Made by a program: the position numbers and the translations under genes | Origin: Escherichia coli | GTDB taxonomy: Bacteria; Pseudomonadota; Gammaproteobacteria; Enterobacterales; Enterobacteriaceae | DNA length: 64,000 bases | Assembly (NCBI RefSeq): GCF_003334405.1 | Contig: NZ_QOWM01000003.1 | Strand: one strand, 5' to 3' | Notes under the pieces: generated by a model | The model's database searches: none | Seen by the model: only the letters and a program-made list of their open reading frames with translations | Told to the model about the DNA's origin: nothing | Shown: positions 11,234 through 63,448 of the stretch, piece after piece | How positions within the stretch are numbered: the first letter of the stretch is position 1 | How the letters are laid out: the number at the start of each line of letters is the position of its first letter

Positions 11234-12068
<835 letters not shown>

Positions 12069-12376
12069 ATCCCTGAACAGTATAAAAAACGAACGATAAC
12101 CGTGATCTGTTGAGCGGGTGACAGTGCGCATAGCGTTGTGCTAAAAATATTGTATATATTCACATTAATTATGGGATTTAAATTACTAAAACTGATAAAT
12201 ATATATTCTAAATAGCAACTGGGTTATTCCTTAGCAATTAATGATTACATTGTAATAAATCATATTCTTTATCGATTGTTTCAGGCAGTGTTGTGCCTAA
12301 TTATGCAAGCGGTTAATTCGTTGTATATTTAATTATACAATGATTTCGGTGTCCAGTAATTTAATTAGAGGAATCT

Positions 12377-15983: not shown

Positions 15984-16082
15984 CCTGATGCGCTATGCTT
16001 ATCAGGCCTACATAGTCCCTGCAATATATTGAATTAGCAAGGTTTTGTAGGCCGGATAAGGCGTTCACGCCGCATCCGGCAG
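15984..16082. repeat. REP elements (two copies) between torZ and cmoB
   Basis: gcctgatgcgctatgcttatcaggcctaca and gtaggccggataaggcgttcacgccgcatccggcag. Confidence 0.7.
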
Positions 16083-24357: not shown

Positions 24358-24465
24358 TGAATATGTAATATTAAAATATTTGCTTCCAATATAACCTGTA
24401 GAATAAATTATACTGTGCCATTTTTCAGTTCATCGAGACACCTCGCAAGTTTTCTTCATCCTTCG

Positions 24466-24485
24466 CTGGATATCTATCCAGCATT
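24466..24485. promoter_or_regulatory. LexA (SOS) box upstream of ruvAB
   Basis: cgCTGgatatctatcCAGca: CTG-N10-CAG palindrome about 50 nt upstream of the ruvA start. Confidence 0.75.
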
Positions 24486-38449: not shown

Positions 38450-39628
38450 TTAACCCTGTACTTTTACCTGTCCGGCGGCGTGCTTCGCGCGTTCAATGGC
38501 GTCAACAACACTCTCTGCAGTAGCCAGTGCCACCCCCAGACGACGGCTGCCATCAATTTCCGGCTTACCAAATAAACGAATCTGCAAATCTGCGCCTACG
38601 GCATTCTGCACATTATCAAACGTGACATTCTGACTGGTCAGTTGTGGCAGAATAACGGCAGAAGCTGCAGGACCATACTGACGGATCCCGCCAACCGGAA
38701 GTCCGAGGAAGGCACGTACATGCAGGGCAAACTCTGAGAGATCTTGAGAAATTAACGTCACCATCCCGGTATCATGTGGACGAGGGGAGACCTCACTGAA
38801 AATCACCTCATCACCACAGACAAATAGCTCGACACCAAACAACCCATAACCGCCCAGTGCCAGCACCACTTTACGGGCAATCTCCTGCGCACGTTCAAGG
38901 GCAAGCGGGCTCATTTGCTGTGGTTGCCAGGATTCACGGTAGTCGCCATCTTCCTGGCGATGACCTACTGGTGCACAGAAATGGACGCCATCCACCGCGC
39001 TGACGGTTAGCAGGGTAATTTCGAAGTCAAACTTAACGACGCCTTCAACAATTACGCGGCCCGCTCCGGCGCGACCGCCTTGCTGAGCGTACTTCCATGC
39101 CTGAGCAAGTTGCTCTGCAGAACGAATAAACGTCTGCCCCTTGCCGGAAGAGCTCATCACCGGTTTTACAATGCAGGGATAGCCAATGTCAGCAACCGCC
39201 TCGCGGAAAAGGCTTTCGCTATCGGCAAAACGATAAGTGGAAGTGGGCAGCTGCAGCTCTTCTGCCGCCAGGCGACGGATACCCTCGCGATTCATCGTTA
39301 ATTTCGTTGCGCGAGCGCAGGGGACAACATTCAGTCCTTCCTCTTCAAGTTGGATCAGCATATCGGTGGCAATAGCTTCGATCTCCGGCACGATATAATG
39401 TGGTTTTTCCAGTTCAACCACACGGCGTAATGCATCACCATCAAGCATATTAATGACATGGGAGCGATGCGCGACATGCATGGCTGGTGCGTCGGCATAG
39501 CGATCGACGGCAATCACCTCTACGCCGAGACGCTGACACTCGATTGCCACTTCTTTACCCAGTTCACCGGAGCCTAATAACATCACGCGAGTTGCTGCCG
39601 GACGCAGCGCAGTGCCTAATAACGTCAT
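38450..39628 (-). CDS. purT: Formate-dependent phosphoribosylglycinamide formyltransferase PurT (392 aa)
   Basis: 392-aa [45 protein letters not shown]; ATP-grasp. Confidence 0.95.
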
Positions 39629-39665
39629 AACGAATATCCCCTGATTAATTCCGCGCGCAGTATAA

Positions 39666-39681
39666 ACGAAAACGTTTGCGT
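39666..39681. promoter_or_regulatory. PurR box upstream of purT
   Basis: acgaaaacgtttgcgt, a 16-bp palindrome resembling the PurR operator ACGCAAACGTTTGCGT, about 40 nt upstream of the purT start. Confidence 0.55.
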
Positions 39682-39724
39682 GTGTCTTTATTGCTGATGT
39701 TGATTTCTCAACCGAAAAGAAATA

Positions 39725-39744
39725 TACTGTATAAAATCACAGTT
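39725..39744. promoter_or_regulatory. LexA (SOS) box upstream of yebG
   Basis: taCTGtataaaatcaCAGtt: CTG-N10-CAG about 20 nt upstream of the yebG start. Confidence 0.7.
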
Positions 39745-39761
39745 ATTATGAGAGGCTGCAA

Positions 39762-40052
39762 ATGGCGGTTGAAGTTAAATACGTAGTCATTCGTGAGGGC
39801 GAAGAGAAAATGTCGTTTACCAGCAAAAAGGAAGCCGATGCTTATGACAAAATGCTTGATACGGCGGATCTGCTTGACACCTGGCTGACAAATTCTCCAG
39901 TGCAAATGGAAGACGAGCAACGTGAAGCCCTTTCGCTATGGCTGGCAGAACAAAAAGATGTGCTGAGCACCATTCTGAAAACCGGCAAATTACCGTCCCC
40001 ACAGGTCGTCGGTGCTGAATCCGAAGAGGAAGATGCCTCACACGCGGCCTGA
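39762..40052 (+). CDS. yebG: DNA damage-inducible protein YebG (96 aa)
   Basis: 96-aa ORF MAVEVKYVVIREGEEKMSFTSKKEADAYDKMLD. Confidence 0.9.
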   Translation: MAVEVKYVVIREGEEKMSFTSKKEADAYDKMLDTADLLDTWLTNSPVQMEDEQREALSLWLAEQKDVLSTILKTGKLPSPQVVGAESEEEDASHAA

Positions 40053-40070: not shown

Positions 40071-40475
<405 letters not shown>

Positions 40476-40801: not shown

Positions 40802-41461
40802 ATGGCTAACTGGTTAAATCAACTGCAATCCCTGCTTGGGCAAAGCAGTTCTTCTACCTCCTCGTCTGCGGATCAGGGATTGGTCAAACTGTTAGTGCCA
40901 GGCGCATTAGGCGGACTGGCTGGGCTGCTGGTCGCAAATAAATCAGCACGTAAACTTCTTACGAAATATGGCACCAACGCGTTACTGGTTGGCGGCGGAG
41001 CGGTAGCGGGTACGGTGCTGTGGAATAAATACAAAGATAAAATTCGCGCGGCGCATCAGGACGAACCGCAGTTTGGCGCGCAAAGTACGCCGCTGGATGA
41101 GCGTACAGCACGTTTGATCCTTGCGCTGGTCTTTGCCGCTAAAAGTGATGGTCATATTGATGCCAAAGAACGTGCGGCAATCGACCAGCAATTGCGTGGA
41201 GCCGGCGTGGAAGAGCAGGGGCGTGTACTCATTGAGCAGGCAATCGAACAACCGCTGGATCCACAACGCCTGGCTACCGGGGTCCGCAATGAAGAAGAGG
41301 CGCTGGAAATCTATTTCCTGAGTTGCGCGGCTATTGATATTGACCATTTTATGGAACGCAGTTACCTGAATGCACTGGGTGACGCGCTGAAAATCCCCCA
41401 GGATGTTCGTGACGGCATTGAACGCGATCTCGAACAGCAAAAACGCACTTTGGCGGAATAA
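40802..41461 (+). CDS. yebE: DUF533-family inner membrane protein YebE (219 aa)
   Basis: 219-aa [41 protein letters not shown]. Confidence 0.88.
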
Positions 41462-47215: not shown

Positions 47216-47440
47216 AACATTTCAGCTGATGACCACCACGCTTTTTATTGACCATTTTGCACGCAAACTGGAAAACCTGGCGTCGTCATCTATTCTTAAA
47301 GGGCAAGGCAACTAAGCCTGCATTAATGCCAACTTTTAGCGCACGGCTCTCTCCCAAGAGCCATTTCCCTGGACCGAATACAGGAATCGTGTTCGGTCTC
47401 TTTTTATCTGTTAAAAGCCAGAAGCATTTCCTTCGCTGAC
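47172..47440 (-). ncRNA. ryeA: Antisense sRNA RyeA (SraC) overlapping sdsR; boundaries uncertain
   Basis: Established knowledge that RyeA is transcribed opposite to and fully overlaps SdsR in this intergenic region; boundaries inferred from the bidirectional terminator at 47171..47215. Confidence 0.35.
47303..47405 (+). ncRNA. sdsR: sRNA SdsR (RyeB), RpoS-dependent Hfq-binding sRNA; ends approximate
   Basis: gcaaggcaactaagcctgcattaatgccaacttttagcgcacggctctctcccaagagccatttccctggaccgaatacaggaatcgtgttcggtctcttttt matches the SdsR sequence as I recall it, including the terminal hairpin plus U-run; yebY-pphA intergenic location. Confidence 0.6.
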
Positions 47441-48846: not shown

Positions 48847-50292
48847 TCAGGCGTTACCGGTAAAAAGTTTCCCATCGCGCACCAGTTCACGCGGATAGCT
48901 GTTTTTCAATCGCGAACCAATCCGTTTGGCTAAACCAATCGGTTGATGCTGGAAAGTAACCAATACATCATCCGCCACTGGCGCGGCTTGCGGGTAAACA
49001 TCGCGCCCGCGATACCACTCCTCCGCTTCCTGCGGTGTCAGCTCGAATGCATTCATATTATCGGGTGAGGCAAGAGCAATAACCGCTTCATGCTGCCAGC
49101 GATAACCTTTGTTGTGCGTCTCGGCAAGTTTAATCCCCAACCGAGAAAATCGGACTTTACCGATCAGGGCTTCAATGCCCACCGGGAACAACCACAGTTC
49201 TTTGTCACGCTGCCAGAGGCGCAGGTTTTCATCCCAGTTTAAGCCAACACCTGTAGCCGCCTGACGAATTTGTCCAGCTTCGCGATCTTTCACCGGGCTG
49301 AACGGAAAATTACCGACTTTGTATTTGGGGGCGGGTAAGGCGGGAATCGCCTGAGTTTTACGCAGACGAGCAACGAAGAAGCCTTCGCAGTCGTAAATTT
49401 GTGGGAAAACATGCAAAAAGCCTTCTTCGGTCAGCGCTTTGTTTGCACCAGGGAAGAGATCGCCAAGTGGTAAAAACTCTACTGCGTCGGGGTAAGTCTC
49501 TTTCAGCCACAGGCAAACGGCTTCGTTTTCTTCCTGGTTTAAGGTACAGGTCGAGTAAACCAGCGTACCACCAGGACGTAATGCATGAAAGGCGCTGTCG
49601 ATAAGCTCCCGTTGTGTAGCTGCGATTTCCTGATTGCTTTCTGGTGACCAGTTTTTTAGCGCATCGGGATCTTTACGCACCACGCCTTCGCCAGAGCAGG
49701 GAGCGTCCAGCAAAATGGCATCGAACATTTCTGGCACTGCCGCACCAAACACGCGGCCATCAAAATGTGTGAGCGCAACATTACTGATACCACAGCGGCT
49801 GATATTGGCATGTAACACTTTTACCCGACTGGCGGAAAACTCATTGGCAAGGATTGCCCCTTCGTTATTCATCCGCGCGGAAATTTGCGTCGTTTTGGAG
49901 CCAGGCGCGGCAGCGACATCCATCACCCGCTGTGGTGCATTACCGTCAGCAAACAAGGCGGCAACAGGCAACATTGAACTGGCTTCCTGAATATAAAACA
50001 GGCCACTTAAATGCTCGGCGGTACTACCCAATGGCAATGCATCTTCATTGTCGCGTTCAATCCAGAAACCTTCTTCACACCACGGAATTGGCGTAAGCGT
50101 CCAGCCATAAGGAGCGGTTAATTGCAGGAAATCAGCAACGGAGATTTTCAGCGTATTAACGCGAATGCTGCGGCGCAACGGGCGCTGACAGGCGGCAAGA
50201 AAATCATCAAATGAGAGCGTCGAAGGCATCGCTTCGCGCATTTGTGTCAGAAAGGCGTCCGGGAAATAAACGGTGTGTTGGGCCACGAGCAT
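48847..50292 (-). CDS. rsmF: 16S rRNA m5C1407 methyltransferase RsmF (YebU) (about 479-481 aa; start uncertain)
   Basis: ORF with NOL1/NOP2/Sun-family SAM methyltransferase core ([27 protein letters not shown]). Confidence 0.9.
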
Positions 50293-50365: not shown

Positions 50366-52999
50366 TTATTTGGGAAGCGCAGTTCCCCATTCACGCCACT
50401 CTTTCGGTTCACTTTCCTGCAACAGGAAGTGTTTGCCTTCCTGGGCTTTCGGTGCCAGTGGCGTACCCGGAGGCGTGGCGAAGGCGATGCCGCCACGGAT
50501 AAACTGGTTAAAGGTGCCGGTTTTCACTACGCCGCCCGTCAGACCAAAGTCCAGACTGTAACCCGATGCCAACCAGAAGACGGAATTGTTACGCACCAGG
50601 TGTTGATAGCGTTTACTGATGCGCATCGCAATCATCACGCGATCTGACAATGTCCCCAGCGTCATTCCTGTAACCGTACCGACTTCCAGACCACGGAACA
50701 GCACAGGCGTACCGATGCCTAACGAACCGGCTTCCGGCGCTTCAACAATAATGCTTAAGCCATCCAGGTAACGCGAATCAGTAATGGTGGCCTCTTGTAA
50801 TTCAAAGTCGCGGCGAGGATTGCCCCGGCCTGGTTCGACGTTGATATACGGCTGGAGGATAGTATCAAGATGCTCAACGCCAGCTGCCGAAATTTGCGGT
50901 GTGACCACTGAGAAGCGCGTACCACCGCGAGCAAAGGTCTGGACATATTCCGGGTAAAGTACCGCCTTTGCCTGTACTTCATTGCGTGCGGTAATCAGAT
51001 CCAGCGTCTGGATTTGCCCGATATCAATACCGAGATAGCGAATTGGCATCCCGACCGCCAGTTTTCCGGCATCGAAAGCGTGAAGCGTAATCTGCCCGCC
51101 AACCGCACGGGCCGCTGTTTCGGAAGCATACAGAATACGCTTATCGCCTTTACGCTGACTGGCGCTGGCACCGCTGAGGTTGTCGAAGCTAATGGCTCCC
51201 TTTAATGCTCTGGAGAGCGGGGATGCCTGTACGGTCAGACCACTACCATTCAGCTGAACTTTCGCCCCGCCTTCTGCCCAGAACACGCTATTGCTGGTCA
51301 GAAGGTTGCGATACTCCGGCTTAATATGCAGATCGATATCAAACGCGTTAGCTCGCGGACGCACGGTAATCACTTCACCAACTTCAAATTTACGGTACAG
51401 CACTACCGATCCTGCCTGCACATCCGGCAGCGTCTCTGCACTCAAACTCACGGTTGTGGTGGGTAAATCGCTAAGGCTGTTCTCCAGCGCTTTTTCCAAA
51501 TTGGCATACAGTGGATAGCTGGCTTTCATCTCACCTTTATCGCCCGGCAGAATACGTATCCCGCCATTGATCCATTCTGAGGCGCTGGCACCGAGAAACT
51601 CAACGCCATCCAGCCCCACCTTCACATCGACACGGCTGTTGACGACAAATTTGCTATCGCCTTTTACCAGTTCGCGATGCTGAGGCTCGATGGCGACGGT
51701 AAAGGTGACGCCTTTGCTGGTGAGTTTACGATCGATAACCTGGCCTACCTGCACGCCGTGAAGAATGAGCGGCTGACCCGCATCAATACCGTAACTTTCC
51801 GGCGCGGTCAGGGTCAGCGTCAGAACATCAGGTTCATGCAGCAGTGCTTTTTCGCCTGGCACAACAACGAACTCTTTGCGTGGCTCGCCATCGCCGGGCA
51901 CCAGCTCGAAGGTTTTGCCGGTCAGCAGGGCGCTGAGATTAGCATCGCTAAGGGATAATTTCGGGTTGCGTAATTCGATGCGGGTATTTTCACGAAGCAG
52001 GGTAACGACGCTGGGATCAACGGTCATTTCCCCTGTGACTTTACCACCAGGATTTAAATCCAGTTTAGTCAGCTGTCCGACTTCCAGCCCCTGATACATT
52101 AACGGCGTCGAGTCGGCGGTTAATCCGGCCCCACTCGGCAGTTCCAGTTTTATTATTACGCCACGCTGGCTGTGGGCCAGATCTTCATACAGACCAAAGG
52201 TATCTTCCGCCTCGGCAGGTTTCGACTCTTCTGGTGAATCGAAGGCAATCGCACCGTTAACCAGTGCCGCCAGGCTTTCCAGTTTCACCTTCGCGCCACT
52301 GATACTGACGTTGGCATCAACGCCGGAAACGTTCCAGAAACGGCTACCTTTTTTCACCAGATCGGTAAAACGCCGCTCGATCAGGACATCAATCACCACG
52401 CCTTGCTTGTTGGGATTGATGGCATAGTCGTAGACTTTTCCCACCGGGATCTTGCGGAAATAGACCAATGAACCGCTGTTCAGCGAACCGAGATCGGGGG
52501 CTTGCAGGTGGATCATCAGATCGCCATTGTCCAGCCGATATTTCGGTTGGGTATCGAGTGCGACAAAGTGATCCTGCTCTTTACCTTTACCCGGCATCAT
52601 GCCGATATAGTTCCCACCGACGAGGGCGTCCAGCCCGGAGACACCTGCCAACGATGCTTTTGGCGTCACCAGCCAGAACTGAGTCTCTTCGCGCAGCGCA
52701 TCTTTCATATCGGACTTGATGCTGACCTTGACTTCAATCTTACGAAGATCGTCGCTGAGGCTGATATCCTGCACTGTTCCGACTTCAACGCCCTGATAAC
52801 GAACAGGCGTACGGCCTGGAACAATACCATCCGCCGACATAAAGTCGATGGTGACGGTATTACCCCGGTCCTGATAACTGTCCCAAATCAGCCAACTGGC
52901 AATCATTAGCGCGATGAACGGCAGCAGCCAGAAAGGTGAGATACGGCGTTTATTTTTAATCTGCGCTTCAGTCGTCGAAGCGGGCGTTTCCTGACTCAT
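50366..52999 (-). CDS. letB: Lipophilic envelope-spanning tunnel protein LetB (YebT), multi-MCE-domain protein (877 aa)
   Basis: ORF 50366..53041; start placed at ATG 52999 ([38 protein letters not shown]); N-terminal TM helix then repeated MCE domains. Confidence 0.92.
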
Positions 53000-58862: not shown

Positions 58863-60233
58863 TGCCCTGGATCGTGGCTGAGTGATACGTAAACCACTGA
58901 CACAGGCAGCAATCACTGCCAGAATAGCCGCAGCCATCAGCGAGACGTGTGTACCATTATCTCCAAACTGATTTAGCATCAGCGCCACCAGCGCCGCGCC
59001 GCTACTCTGACCCAGTAGACGAGCCGTTCCTAACATGCCACTGGCTCCACCGCTACGTTCGCGAGGCGCGGAGGTAATAATGGTGTGGTTATTGGGTGAC
59101 TGGAATAAGCCAAATCCAGCACCACATAAGATCATCGGCCAGATAATATTGATATCCGCAGGTGACGCGGGCAGCAGAACCAGGGAAAAAAGCCCCGCAG
59201 CCATGATGAACAACCCTAAAGCCCCCAGCAATCCTGCATGTACGCGTTCAATCAAATAGCCTGCCAGCGGAGCCATCACCATCGTTGCTAACGGCCACGG
59301 TGTCAGAAGTAAACCTGTTTCGACTTCACTACGCCCGAGCACGGTTTGCAGGTAAAAGGGCAGGGAAACCATTGCCAGCATTTGTGCGCAGAAAGAGCAA
59401 ACAGATGTGCAAATAGAAAGTGAAAACAGCGGGATACGCAGTAAATCCACCGGTAGCAGCGGTACGGGAAGAGAAAGCTGGCGGCGAATAAAGAAAATAC
59501 CAACAACAACCATTACCACCAGTTCCGCAGCAATTAACGTCAGCGATTGCCCCTGAGCGAAACCACTCAACGCAGTGATAAGCAGGCCGAAGGTTAACGC
59601 GTTCATCACGGCGCTGGGCAGGTCGAAACGGGGTTTACTGGCGCGAGAACCATTGGGTGGCAGAAAACGCATCGCCAGAAGCAGGGCGATAATACCTAAC
59701 GGTACGTTGATTAAAAATAACCATTTCCAGGATGCGATGGAGAGGATTGCTGCAGCAATTGTCGGCCCGGCAGCAGAAGAGACGGCAACAATAAACGAGT
59801 TTATGCCCATCCCTCTACCCAGAAAACGTTGTGGATAGATCAGGCGGATAAGTGCGGTATTAACGCTCATCAACGCTGCACCGCCGAAACCTTGTATGAC
59901 ACGCGCAAGGGTGAGCATTTGCAGCGAATCAGAAAGGGCGCAGAACAGTGAAGACAACAGAAAAACGACCAGACCGCATTTATAAATACGTCGATAGCCA
60001 AACATATCGCCCAGAAACGAAAACGAGAGCAGGGAGATGACAATGGCGATTTGATAGGCGTTCACTACCCAGATGGAACTGGCTGGCGTGGCATGAAGGT
60101 CCGTGGCGATTGTTGGCAGGGCGACGTTGGCGATTGCGCCGTCAAGGACGGCCATCGAAATACCAATCACAATGGTTAATATCGCACCGTATCGCTGGGG
60201 CAATGGCAGGCCGTCGGCCTGAACTTTTGGCAT
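58860..60233 (-). CDS. yebQ: MFS transporter YebQ (457 aa)
   Basis: ORF 58860..60344; start placed at ATG 60233 (MPKVQADGLPLPQRYGAILTIVIGISMAVLDGAIANVALPTIA); 12-14 TM drug/H+ antiporter-like. Confidence 0.88.
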   Translation of the reverse strand: MPKVQADGLPLPQRYGAILTIVIGISMAVLDGAIANVALPTIATDLHATPASSIWVVNAYQIAIVISLLSFSFLGDMFGYRRIYKCGLVVFLLSSLFCALSDSLQMLTLARVIQGFGGAALMSVNTALIRLIYPQRFLGRGMGINSFIVAVSSAAGPTIAAAILSIASWKWLFLINVPLGIIALLLAMRFLPPNGSRASKPRFDLPSAVMNALTFGLLITALSGFAQGQSLTLIAAELVVMVVVGIFFIRRQLSLPVPLLPVDLLRIPLFSLSICTSVCSFCAQMLAMVSLPFYLQTVLGRSEVETGLLLTPWPLATMVMAPLAGYLIERVHAGLLGALGLFIMAAGLFSLVLLPASPADINIIWPMILCGAGFGLFQSPNNHTIITSAPRERSGGASGMLGTARLLGQSSGAALVALMLNQFGDNGTHVSLMAAAILAVIAACVSGLRITQPRSRA

Positions 60234-62248: not shown

Positions 62249-62917
62249 TCCTTCCTCAATCTTGAGTAACCCCGTCGTTGAAGGGTTACTCAATTCATCC
62301 TGATTATACGCACTGTCATGGTGCAACTGCTTCAAATTAAAACTCTGGTCTGACTTCAAATAATTATCATATTATTTATTTGCGTAACGGGATATCAGAA
62401 AAAGATATTTACCCCATTAATTTATTAGGATGTTTACATCGGATTTGTGATTAAGCGTGGTATTATTTATTAGCGAAACGTTTCTCTCTTGATTTTTTTG
62501 CTCATTCATCAATTTTTCTTATTTTAAATTTACAATCCCTTTGGGGATTGACTTCTCTTTAGGGTAATTAATAGCCGTTAACTGACTGTTTTATGAGAAA
62601 AAGTGATATAACTTTTTATTCATTGCATAGCAAAAAATGTGATATTGCACGCACTATGTAATAACTTCTCCCACTGGCCTGGAACAACTGAACTTATTGA
62701 ACTATGTTAGAAAATACGCCAGTTTAAGTATCTGCCTGAACTGGCAAGGTTAAGCACAATGATATATCGGCGCGTATTCCGTTGCATAAGTGTGCAAAAA
62801 AAGTGGAAGACGTATCGAGATTTGTGCGTCTGATCGAGACATGTTTAAAAATGGCTTGCCATAATTAACGTTGTATGTGATAACAGATTTCGGGTTAAAC
62901 GAGGTACAGTTCTGTTT

Positions 62918-63061
62918 ATGTGTGGCATTTTCAGTAAAGAAGTCCTGAGTAAACACGTTGACGTTGAATACCGCTTCTCTGCCGAGCCTTATATTGGTGC
63001 CTCATGCAGTAATGTGTCAGTTTTATCTATGTTATGCCTGCGGGCGAAGAAAACAATCTAA
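62918..63061 (+). CDS. yobF: Small protein YobF (47 aa), co-transcribed with cspC; not in the ORF track
   Basis: Manual translation from ATG 62918: [47 protein letters not shown] then TAA, 12 nt upstream of cspC. Confidence 0.85.
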
Positions 63062-63073
63062 GGAATTTTTCAA

Positions 63074-63283
63074 ATGGCAAAGATTAAAGGTCAGGTTAAG
63101 TGGTTCAACGAGTCTAAAGGTTTTGGCTTCATTACTCCGGCTGATGGCAGCAAAGATGTGTTCGTACACTTCTCCGCTATCCAGGGTAATGGCTTCAAAA
63201 CTCTGGCTGAAGGTCAGAACGTTGAGTTCGAAATTCAGGACGGCCAGAAAGGTCCGGCAGCTGTTAACGTAACAGCTATCTGA
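63074..63283 (+). CDS. cspC: Cold-shock-domain protein CspC (69 aa)
   Basis: 69-aa [72 protein letters not shown]. Confidence 0.97.
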
Positions 63284-63328
63284 TCGAATCCACTGATCTG
63301 AAGTGTGAATACGCTTCAATCTCGCTAT

Positions 63329-63355
63329 AAAGCCTCGTCGAATGCGAGGCTTTTT
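63329..63355 (+). terminator. Intrinsic terminator after cspC
   Basis: aaagcctcg-tcgaatg-cgaggc followed by ttttt. Confidence 0.75.
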
Positions 63356-63448
63356 ACTATGCTTTATCTTCGCTCCTGGCGTTCGGATATTTGCCCGCCG
63401 CGTGATTCGCGTTACACTTGCGGCCTTTAGTATCCTGCCGGAGTTGTC

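Follow-up and report, generated by a model that had tools for sequence, protein, structure and literature searches.

The purT-yebG intergenic region raises the question of whether a CTG-N10-CAG element found shortly before the start of yebG is a true LexA operator, and whether a PurR-like palindrome in the same region belongs to the divergent purT, so that two regulons meet within one short stretch of DNA, as a preliminary description had proposed. The whole stretch of DNA analysed here (64 kb, hereafter the window) is a part of the E. coli chromosome extending from tap/cheRBYZ and flhBAE to htpX/yebQ according to the annotation of a collinear chromosome; along it lie argS, torYZ, aspS, ruvC, ruvAB, znuABC, zwf, edd-eda, purT, yebG, yebF, yebE, ptrB, exoX, holE and prc. 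The identities of purT, yebG and yebF were established by a 100% match to annotated E. coli chromosomes, and the sources name the yebG product (Pfam PF07130) "DNA damage-inducible protein YebG". The 1-kb stretch around the yebG site is 100% identical to many complete E. coli chromosomes and is present in all 5426 genomes of 5426. The intergenic region occupies positions 39629-39761 and hence measures 133 bp, one less than the 134 bp initially reported. The features of the region, along with those noted elsewhere in the window, are collected in Table 1.

Table 1. Features of the purT-yebG region and RNA features found elsewhere in the window
Feature	Position	Strand	Basis and remarks
purT CDS	38450..39628	-	392-codon ORF and annotation; formate-dependent GAR transformylase; gene repressed through the PurR box
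purT -10 TATACT (predicted)	39659..39664	-	consensus scan; block conserved in the 31-sequence alignment
PurR operator ACGAAAACGTTTGCGT	39666..39681	.	imperfect palindrome, 14/16 positions symmetric; 38-53 nt before the purT start
purT -35 AAGACA (predicted)	39683..39688	-	consensus scan; TGTCTT on the plus strand conserved
yebG -35 TTGATT (predicted)	39700..39705	+	consensus scan and conservation
yebG -10 TATACT (predicted)	39723..39728	+	consensus scan and conservation; 17-nt spacer
LexA operator (SOS box) TACTGTATAAAATCACAGTT	39725..39744	.	matrix scan, literature and conservation
Shine-Dalgarno-like GAGAGG	39750..39755	+	6 nt before the yebG ATG; read from the sequence
yebG CDS	39762..40052	+	96 aa ORF; Pfam PF07130; gene under the LexA box
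yebF CDS	40119..40475	+	annotation; downstream of yebG
Conserved block 1			purT -10, PurR box and -35; 31-sequence alignment
Conserved block 2			yebG -35; 31-sequence alignment
Conserved block 3			TATACT and LexA box; 31-sequence alignment
Conserved block 4			ribosome-binding site; 31-sequence alignment
MicL sRNA	11761-12068		Rfam match above the gathering score; inside and after cutC
ES036 sRNA	16004-16046		Rfam match above the gathering score
SraC/RyeA and SdsR/RyeB, overlapping pair	47265-47409		Rfam match above the gathering score; between yebY and pphA
cspA-type thermoregulator leader	62898-63358		Rfam match above the gathering score

The results identify, with practical certainty, the 20-mer at 39725-39744 as the LexA operator controlling the yebG(-yebF) promoter and the 16-mer at 39666-39681 as the operator through which PurR controls the divergent purT. 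The present analysis supplies the sequences and scores of the two sites, where they lie with respect to consensus promoter elements, and how well they are conserved; protein binding, the dependence on DNA damage or purines, and the dependence on LexA or PurR are taken from the cited papers.

The SOS box of gammaproteobacteria is a 20-bp sequence, TACTG(TA)5CAGTA, in which the invariant CTG and CAG stand 10 nt apart and enclose an A/T-rich spacer. The sequence upstream of yebG, TACTGTATAAAATCACAGTT, conforms to this pattern: it is a palindrome-like 20-mer with CTG at 39727-39729, CAG at 39740-39742 and an A or T at nine of the ten spacer bases. The sequence and the coordinates initially given for the element proved exact. 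Its placement upstream of yebG was likewise correct, while the distance of "about 20 nt" has to be corrected to 17 nt, counted to the ATG at 39762. Table 4 of PMC3009722 gives the identical 20-mer as the LexA box of yebG.

The core alone proves nothing, because it is common in the window: bare CTG-N10-CAG occurs 25 times against 13.6 expected, a count of at least 25 being reached in 0 of 100 shuffles. The spacers of these matches are nearly all G/C-rich. The excess of the core in the window may stem from the frequent use of CTG and CAG as codons in E. coli. The bare count was therefore rejected as a significance test, since with 25 occurrences in the window it does not discriminate, and the simple CTG-N10-CAG rule is insufficient for calling a LexA site. 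A full matrix was built instead from the 17 boxes of PMC3009722 Table 4, symmetrised and with the yebG site excluded. With this matrix, the yebG 20-mer scored 20.75 bits, compared to 12.8-29.0 bits (median 22.7) for the training sites. From the exact score distribution, p amounts to 6.6e-8 per position, so that 0.008 sites with such a score are expected by chance per 64 kb (both strands) and about 0.6 per 4.6-Mb genome. In the window, the yebG box ranked second, behind the ruvA box (21.3 bits), and the third-best match reached 14.1 bits. A value computed in the manner of the heterology index amounted to 5.17 for the yebG box (0.4-8.9 for the training sites); the heterology index given for yebG in PMC11228462 is 6.3.

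A simple sigma-70 consensus scan of the intergenic region revealed two promoter-like sites, one per strand. On the yebG side, the predicted -10 hexamer and the LexA box share 4 nt, the end of the former being the start of the latter, so that the box overlaps this hexamer and covers the expected start-site region. TATACT is found at the yebG -10 position in 56 of 66 loci, its two bases outside the LexA 20-mer being at least 90% conserved, and in 45 of the 65 Enterobacteriaceae loci TATACT is preceded by TTGnnn at a distance of exactly 17 nt, with spacer sequences that differ. Since this arrangement has been kept despite the differing spacers, it provides independent support for TTGATT-17-TATACT, and conservation favours it as the yebG core promoter. 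Another candidate for the -10, TAAAAT at 39732-39737, would be contained entirely in the LexA box, such that the operator would overlap the -10 in either case. In PMC6003448, the RNA polymerase site of yebG is shifted by 9 bp in the downstream direction relative to an older computational annotation.

Published data on the expression of yebG agree in presenting it as LexA-regulated and DNA-damage-inducible, just as the preliminary description had it. The gene is UV-induced, a yebG-yebF transcript has been reported, and yebF is fully controlled by LexA (PMC3009722). PMC6003448 describes Sort-Seq of the purT-yebG intergenic region, with LexA and RNA polymerase sites for yebG and induction by mitomycin C. 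In PMC11228462, yebG is placed among the classic SOS genes, with 4.4-fold induction by AZT and a 9.7-fold dependence on lexA. Most probably, a LexA dimer bound at 39725-39744 would cover the end of the yebG -10 (TATACT) and the start-site region, thereby keeping RNA polymerase off the promoter until the DNA is damaged, when RecA-stimulated self-cleavage of LexA would relieve the repression. Steric occlusion as the mechanism at both promoters is inferred from their geometry.

Downstream of the box, GAGAGG is a plausible ribosome-binding site of yebG, judging by its sequence and position, and the block GAGGCTGCA around it is conserved in the alignment of 31 sequences. A terminator scan of the gap between yebG and yebF found no terminator-like hairpin there, in keeping with the reports of a joint yebG-yebF transcript and of yebF being fully LexA-controlled (PMC3009722). 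Hence, yebF is probably co-transcribed with yebG and so placed under the same LexA operator.

The divergent side of the region yielded an equally clear picture. The PurR-like palindrome attributed to purT was found exactly where it had been reported, and ACGAAAACGTTTGCGT agrees with every specified position of the consensus ACGNAAACGTTTGCNT of PMC3159470, a 16-bp imperfect palindrome with a central CG. For scoring, a PurR matrix was made from 27 ChIP-chip motifs of PMC3159470 Table 1, with the purT site excluded. Of the 25.05 bits attainable with this matrix, the 16-mer reached 25.03, and the next-best match in the window 14.7 bits; since practically no 16-mer scores higher, the score of the site is given only relative to this maximum. 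Both operators thus lay far above background in the matrix scans (20.75 and 25.03 bits for LexA and PurR, respectively). The PurR box fills almost exactly the 18 nt that separate the predicted -35 hexamer of purT from its -10. The identical 16-mer appears in Table 1 of PMC3159470 as the PurR ChIP-chip motif for purT (positions 1 928 852-1 928 867); the same work reports a PurR ChIP-chip peak at purT, stronger with adenine, and the repression of purT by PurR. PMC6003448 likewise locates PurR binding between the -35 and -10 of purT, with a repression signal that is lost upon purR deletion, and states that the purT site enriches PurR only with hypoxanthine. In such a scheme, PurR bound to hypoxanthine or guanine would sit in the spacer of the purT promoter and block initiation. 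The two promoters stand back to back, each of them a simple-repression unit for its own gene. Taken together, the matrix scans and the literature bear out the presence of two regulons in one intergenic region: the exact 20-mer and 16-mer are both on published record, and the region as such has been dissected by Sort-Seq (PMC6003448).

To follow the two operators beyond E. coli, a scan based on YebG alignment was used with one genome per species, yielding 66 loci, 65 from Enterobacteriaceae and one from Pseudidiomarina. The sampled genera included Escherichia, Citrobacter, Salmonella, Klebsiella, Raoultella, Kosakonia, Phytobacter, Franconibacter and others. A LexA box with a score of 16.9-29.5 bits was present upstream of yebG in all 66 loci, and in all 65 Enterobacteriaceae the best LexA-matrix match within the 400 nt upstream of yebG ends 13-19 nt before the ATG. 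The divergent purT, with a PurR box (20.5-25.2 bits) between its -35 and -10, was likewise found in 65/65 Enterobacteriaceae loci. When 31 intergenic regions were aligned, four conserved blocks emerged (Table 1), separated by variable sequence. In Pseudidiomarina mangrovi, the yebG homologue (45% identity) is preceded by the LexA box CACTGTATAAATAAACAGTT, which scored 24.7 bits and lies 57 nt before the gene; this locus has no purT neighbour and no PurR box (best PurR score -1.2 bits). The presence of a LexA box where purT and its PurR box are missing indicates that each operator travels with its own gene. From these sequences, LexA control of yebG seems to reach far outside the Enterobacteriaceae.

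Within E. coli, the 133-bp region shows at least 99% identity in 3165 genomes and 95-99% in 2257, and the 40-mer centred on the LexA box is identical in 4155 of the 5426 complete genomes. In seven sampled E. coli variants, the substitutions fall mostly between the operators. One O157:H7 strain has an A to G change at 39734, in the spacer of the LexA box, and several E. coli strains carry T to C at 39681, the last position of the PurR box, where C is also found in several other species. At 39738, position 14 of the LexA box, the window has a C (AAAATCACAG), which costs about 2.5 bits; at the equivalent position, A or T is seen in all five other Escherichia loci sampled (E. albertii, E. whittamii and three further strains or clades), which score 23.2-26.4 bits vs. 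20.75.

A separate observation concerns E. coli MS 21-1 (NZ_CP146670.1), the only one among the 5426 genomes that lacks an intact 40-mer. In this strain, an ISL3-family element (with an ISEc53 family transposase) is inserted after 39738, inside the yebG LexA box. At the junction, TACTGTATAAAATC is followed by IS sequence, such that the CTG half is split from the CAG half; a gene of the ClbS/DfsB family comes after the IS element.

Other explanations of the 20-mer have to be weighed against its role as the LexA operator of yebG. The CTG-N10-CAG element might be a chance match in an AT-rich promoter, devoid of any regulatory role; the abundance of the core in the window would agree with this, as would the fact that 22 bits with the LexA matrix was reached in one of 200 mononucleotide shuffles of the window. 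The full 20-mer, with its p value and the small fraction of a site expected per window, speaks against chance, and so does a LexA box before yebG in every one of the 66 species, including the one without purT. Given also the published LexA dependence and Sort-Seq results, this explanation is already refuted by conservation and lexA-mutant data, and we give it next to no credence. Nor is there any appreciable probability that the 20-mer is bound mainly by another factor such as CRP acting through a TCACA half-site. The box does contain TGTAT-N4-TCACA, which resembles CRP half-sites, and according to an older report, stationary-phase expression of yebG is reportedly linked to cAMP and H-NS. However, the half-sites are spaced by 4 nt, whereas a CRP site needs 6 nt, and the CRP candidate was rejected on this spacing; moreover, the LexA-matrix score is at the level of proven boxes, and the published data put LexA at this very place.

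It is also conceivable that the two operators are coupled, with LexA affecting purT or PurR affecting yebG through RNA polymerase competition or local supercoiling, thereby linking purine supply to the SOS response. In favour of such coupling, no more than 11 bp separate the two -35 hexamers, and all 65 Enterobacteriaceae species keep the divergent purT-yebG order. Yet common descent by itself would preserve the gene order among close relatives, the two operators are separated by 43 bp, neither overlaps the hexamers of the other promoter, and in Pseudidiomarina the LexA box of yebG persists in the absence of purT. The directional Sort-Seq data of PMC6003448 also speak against coupling: each promoter showed its own repressor site only, and purT fitted a simple-repression model. 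We thus regard coupling as very improbable, and favour two independent operators, LexA for yebG and PurR for purT. One may still imagine that occupancy of the yebG promoter by LexA or RNA polymerase influences purT, or vice versa, and, separately, that C39738 tunes the basal heterogeneity of yebG expression, by analogy with the yebG polymorphism of Salmonella; we hold this to be very unlikely.

When compared to the known systems, the two sites turned out to be those of E. coli K-12. The yebG LexA box has the same 20-mer, the same gene and the same distance to the start codon as described in PMC3009722, PMC11228462 and PMC6003448, with no difference observed. The PurR motif of the K-12 purT (PMC3159470) is the same 16-mer ACGAAAACGTTTGCGT between the purT -35 and -10, again with no difference; a placement of this type, between -35 and -10, was reported for 14 of 32 PurR-regulated promoters (PMC3159470). 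The ruvAB LexA box resembles that of yebG in having CTG-N10-CAG, an AT-rich spacer, a location upstream of an SOS gene and a close score (21.3 vs. 20.75 bits). It differs in lying about 50 nt before the ruvA ATG, vs. 17 nt for yebG, and in its flanks, CG..CA vs. TA..TT. This ruvA box, CGCTGGATATCTATCCAGCA at window positions 24464-24483, is the top LexA-matrix match, corresponds to the published ruvA box and was one of the training sites. A second CTG-N10-CAG, CTGTGCCATTTTTCAG at 24413-24428, is located 50 nt further upstream of the ruvA box and scores poorly.

The closest parallel outside E. coli is Salmonella enterica, where a box polymorphism has been put to the test; we know of no E. coli counterpart of that test. 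The Salmonella yebG also has a single SOS box, 17 bp from the ATG (PMC8072944). The spacer of the box is TATAAACA or TATAAATA in Salmonella vs. TAAAATCA in E. coli. Depending on the strain, the heterology index is 7.03 or 4.98; induction reaches 41-fold, nalidixic acid being a strong inducer, and a single-base polymorphism in the box alters the size of the uninduced ON subpopulation (PMC8072944). Our species scan revealed orthologous yebG boxes in S. enterica subsp. arizonae and diarizonae as well.

The yebG LexA operator and the purT PurR operator are thus already published, conserved and ordinary: yebG is a textbook member of the SOS regulon, purT is a documented PurR target, and the region between them has been dissected base by base (PMC6003448). 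What is added here is a clean phylogenetic footprint, together with the recognition of TTGnnn-17-TATACT as the conserved yebG core promoter in most Enterobacteriaceae. The result matters little beyond confirming that a scan recovers true operators.

Several weaker matches to the two matrices were seen elsewhere in the window. With the LexA matrix, the 20-mer TATTGTATATATTCACATTA at 12148-12167, located between the end of cutC/MicL and torY, reached 14.1 bits; its CTG and CAG are replaced by TTG and CAT, and it is probably an AT-rich chance match. Two LexA-like sequences at 40808-40827 and 41091-41110 (11.7 and 11.9 bits) are situated at the yebE start and inside yebE, respectively, and yebE is only partially controlled by LexA (PMC3009722). 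Both are probably chance matches, because their scores are comparable to the best ones obtained in shuffled sequence. All three sequences, as well as a LexA-like match at 52046-52065, lie well below the two known boxes, and so do the PurR-like matches at 59537-59552 and 49511-49526. As for RNA genes, the 64-kb window contains no tRNA genes, and its Rfam matches (Table 1) all correspond to known E. coli RNAs.
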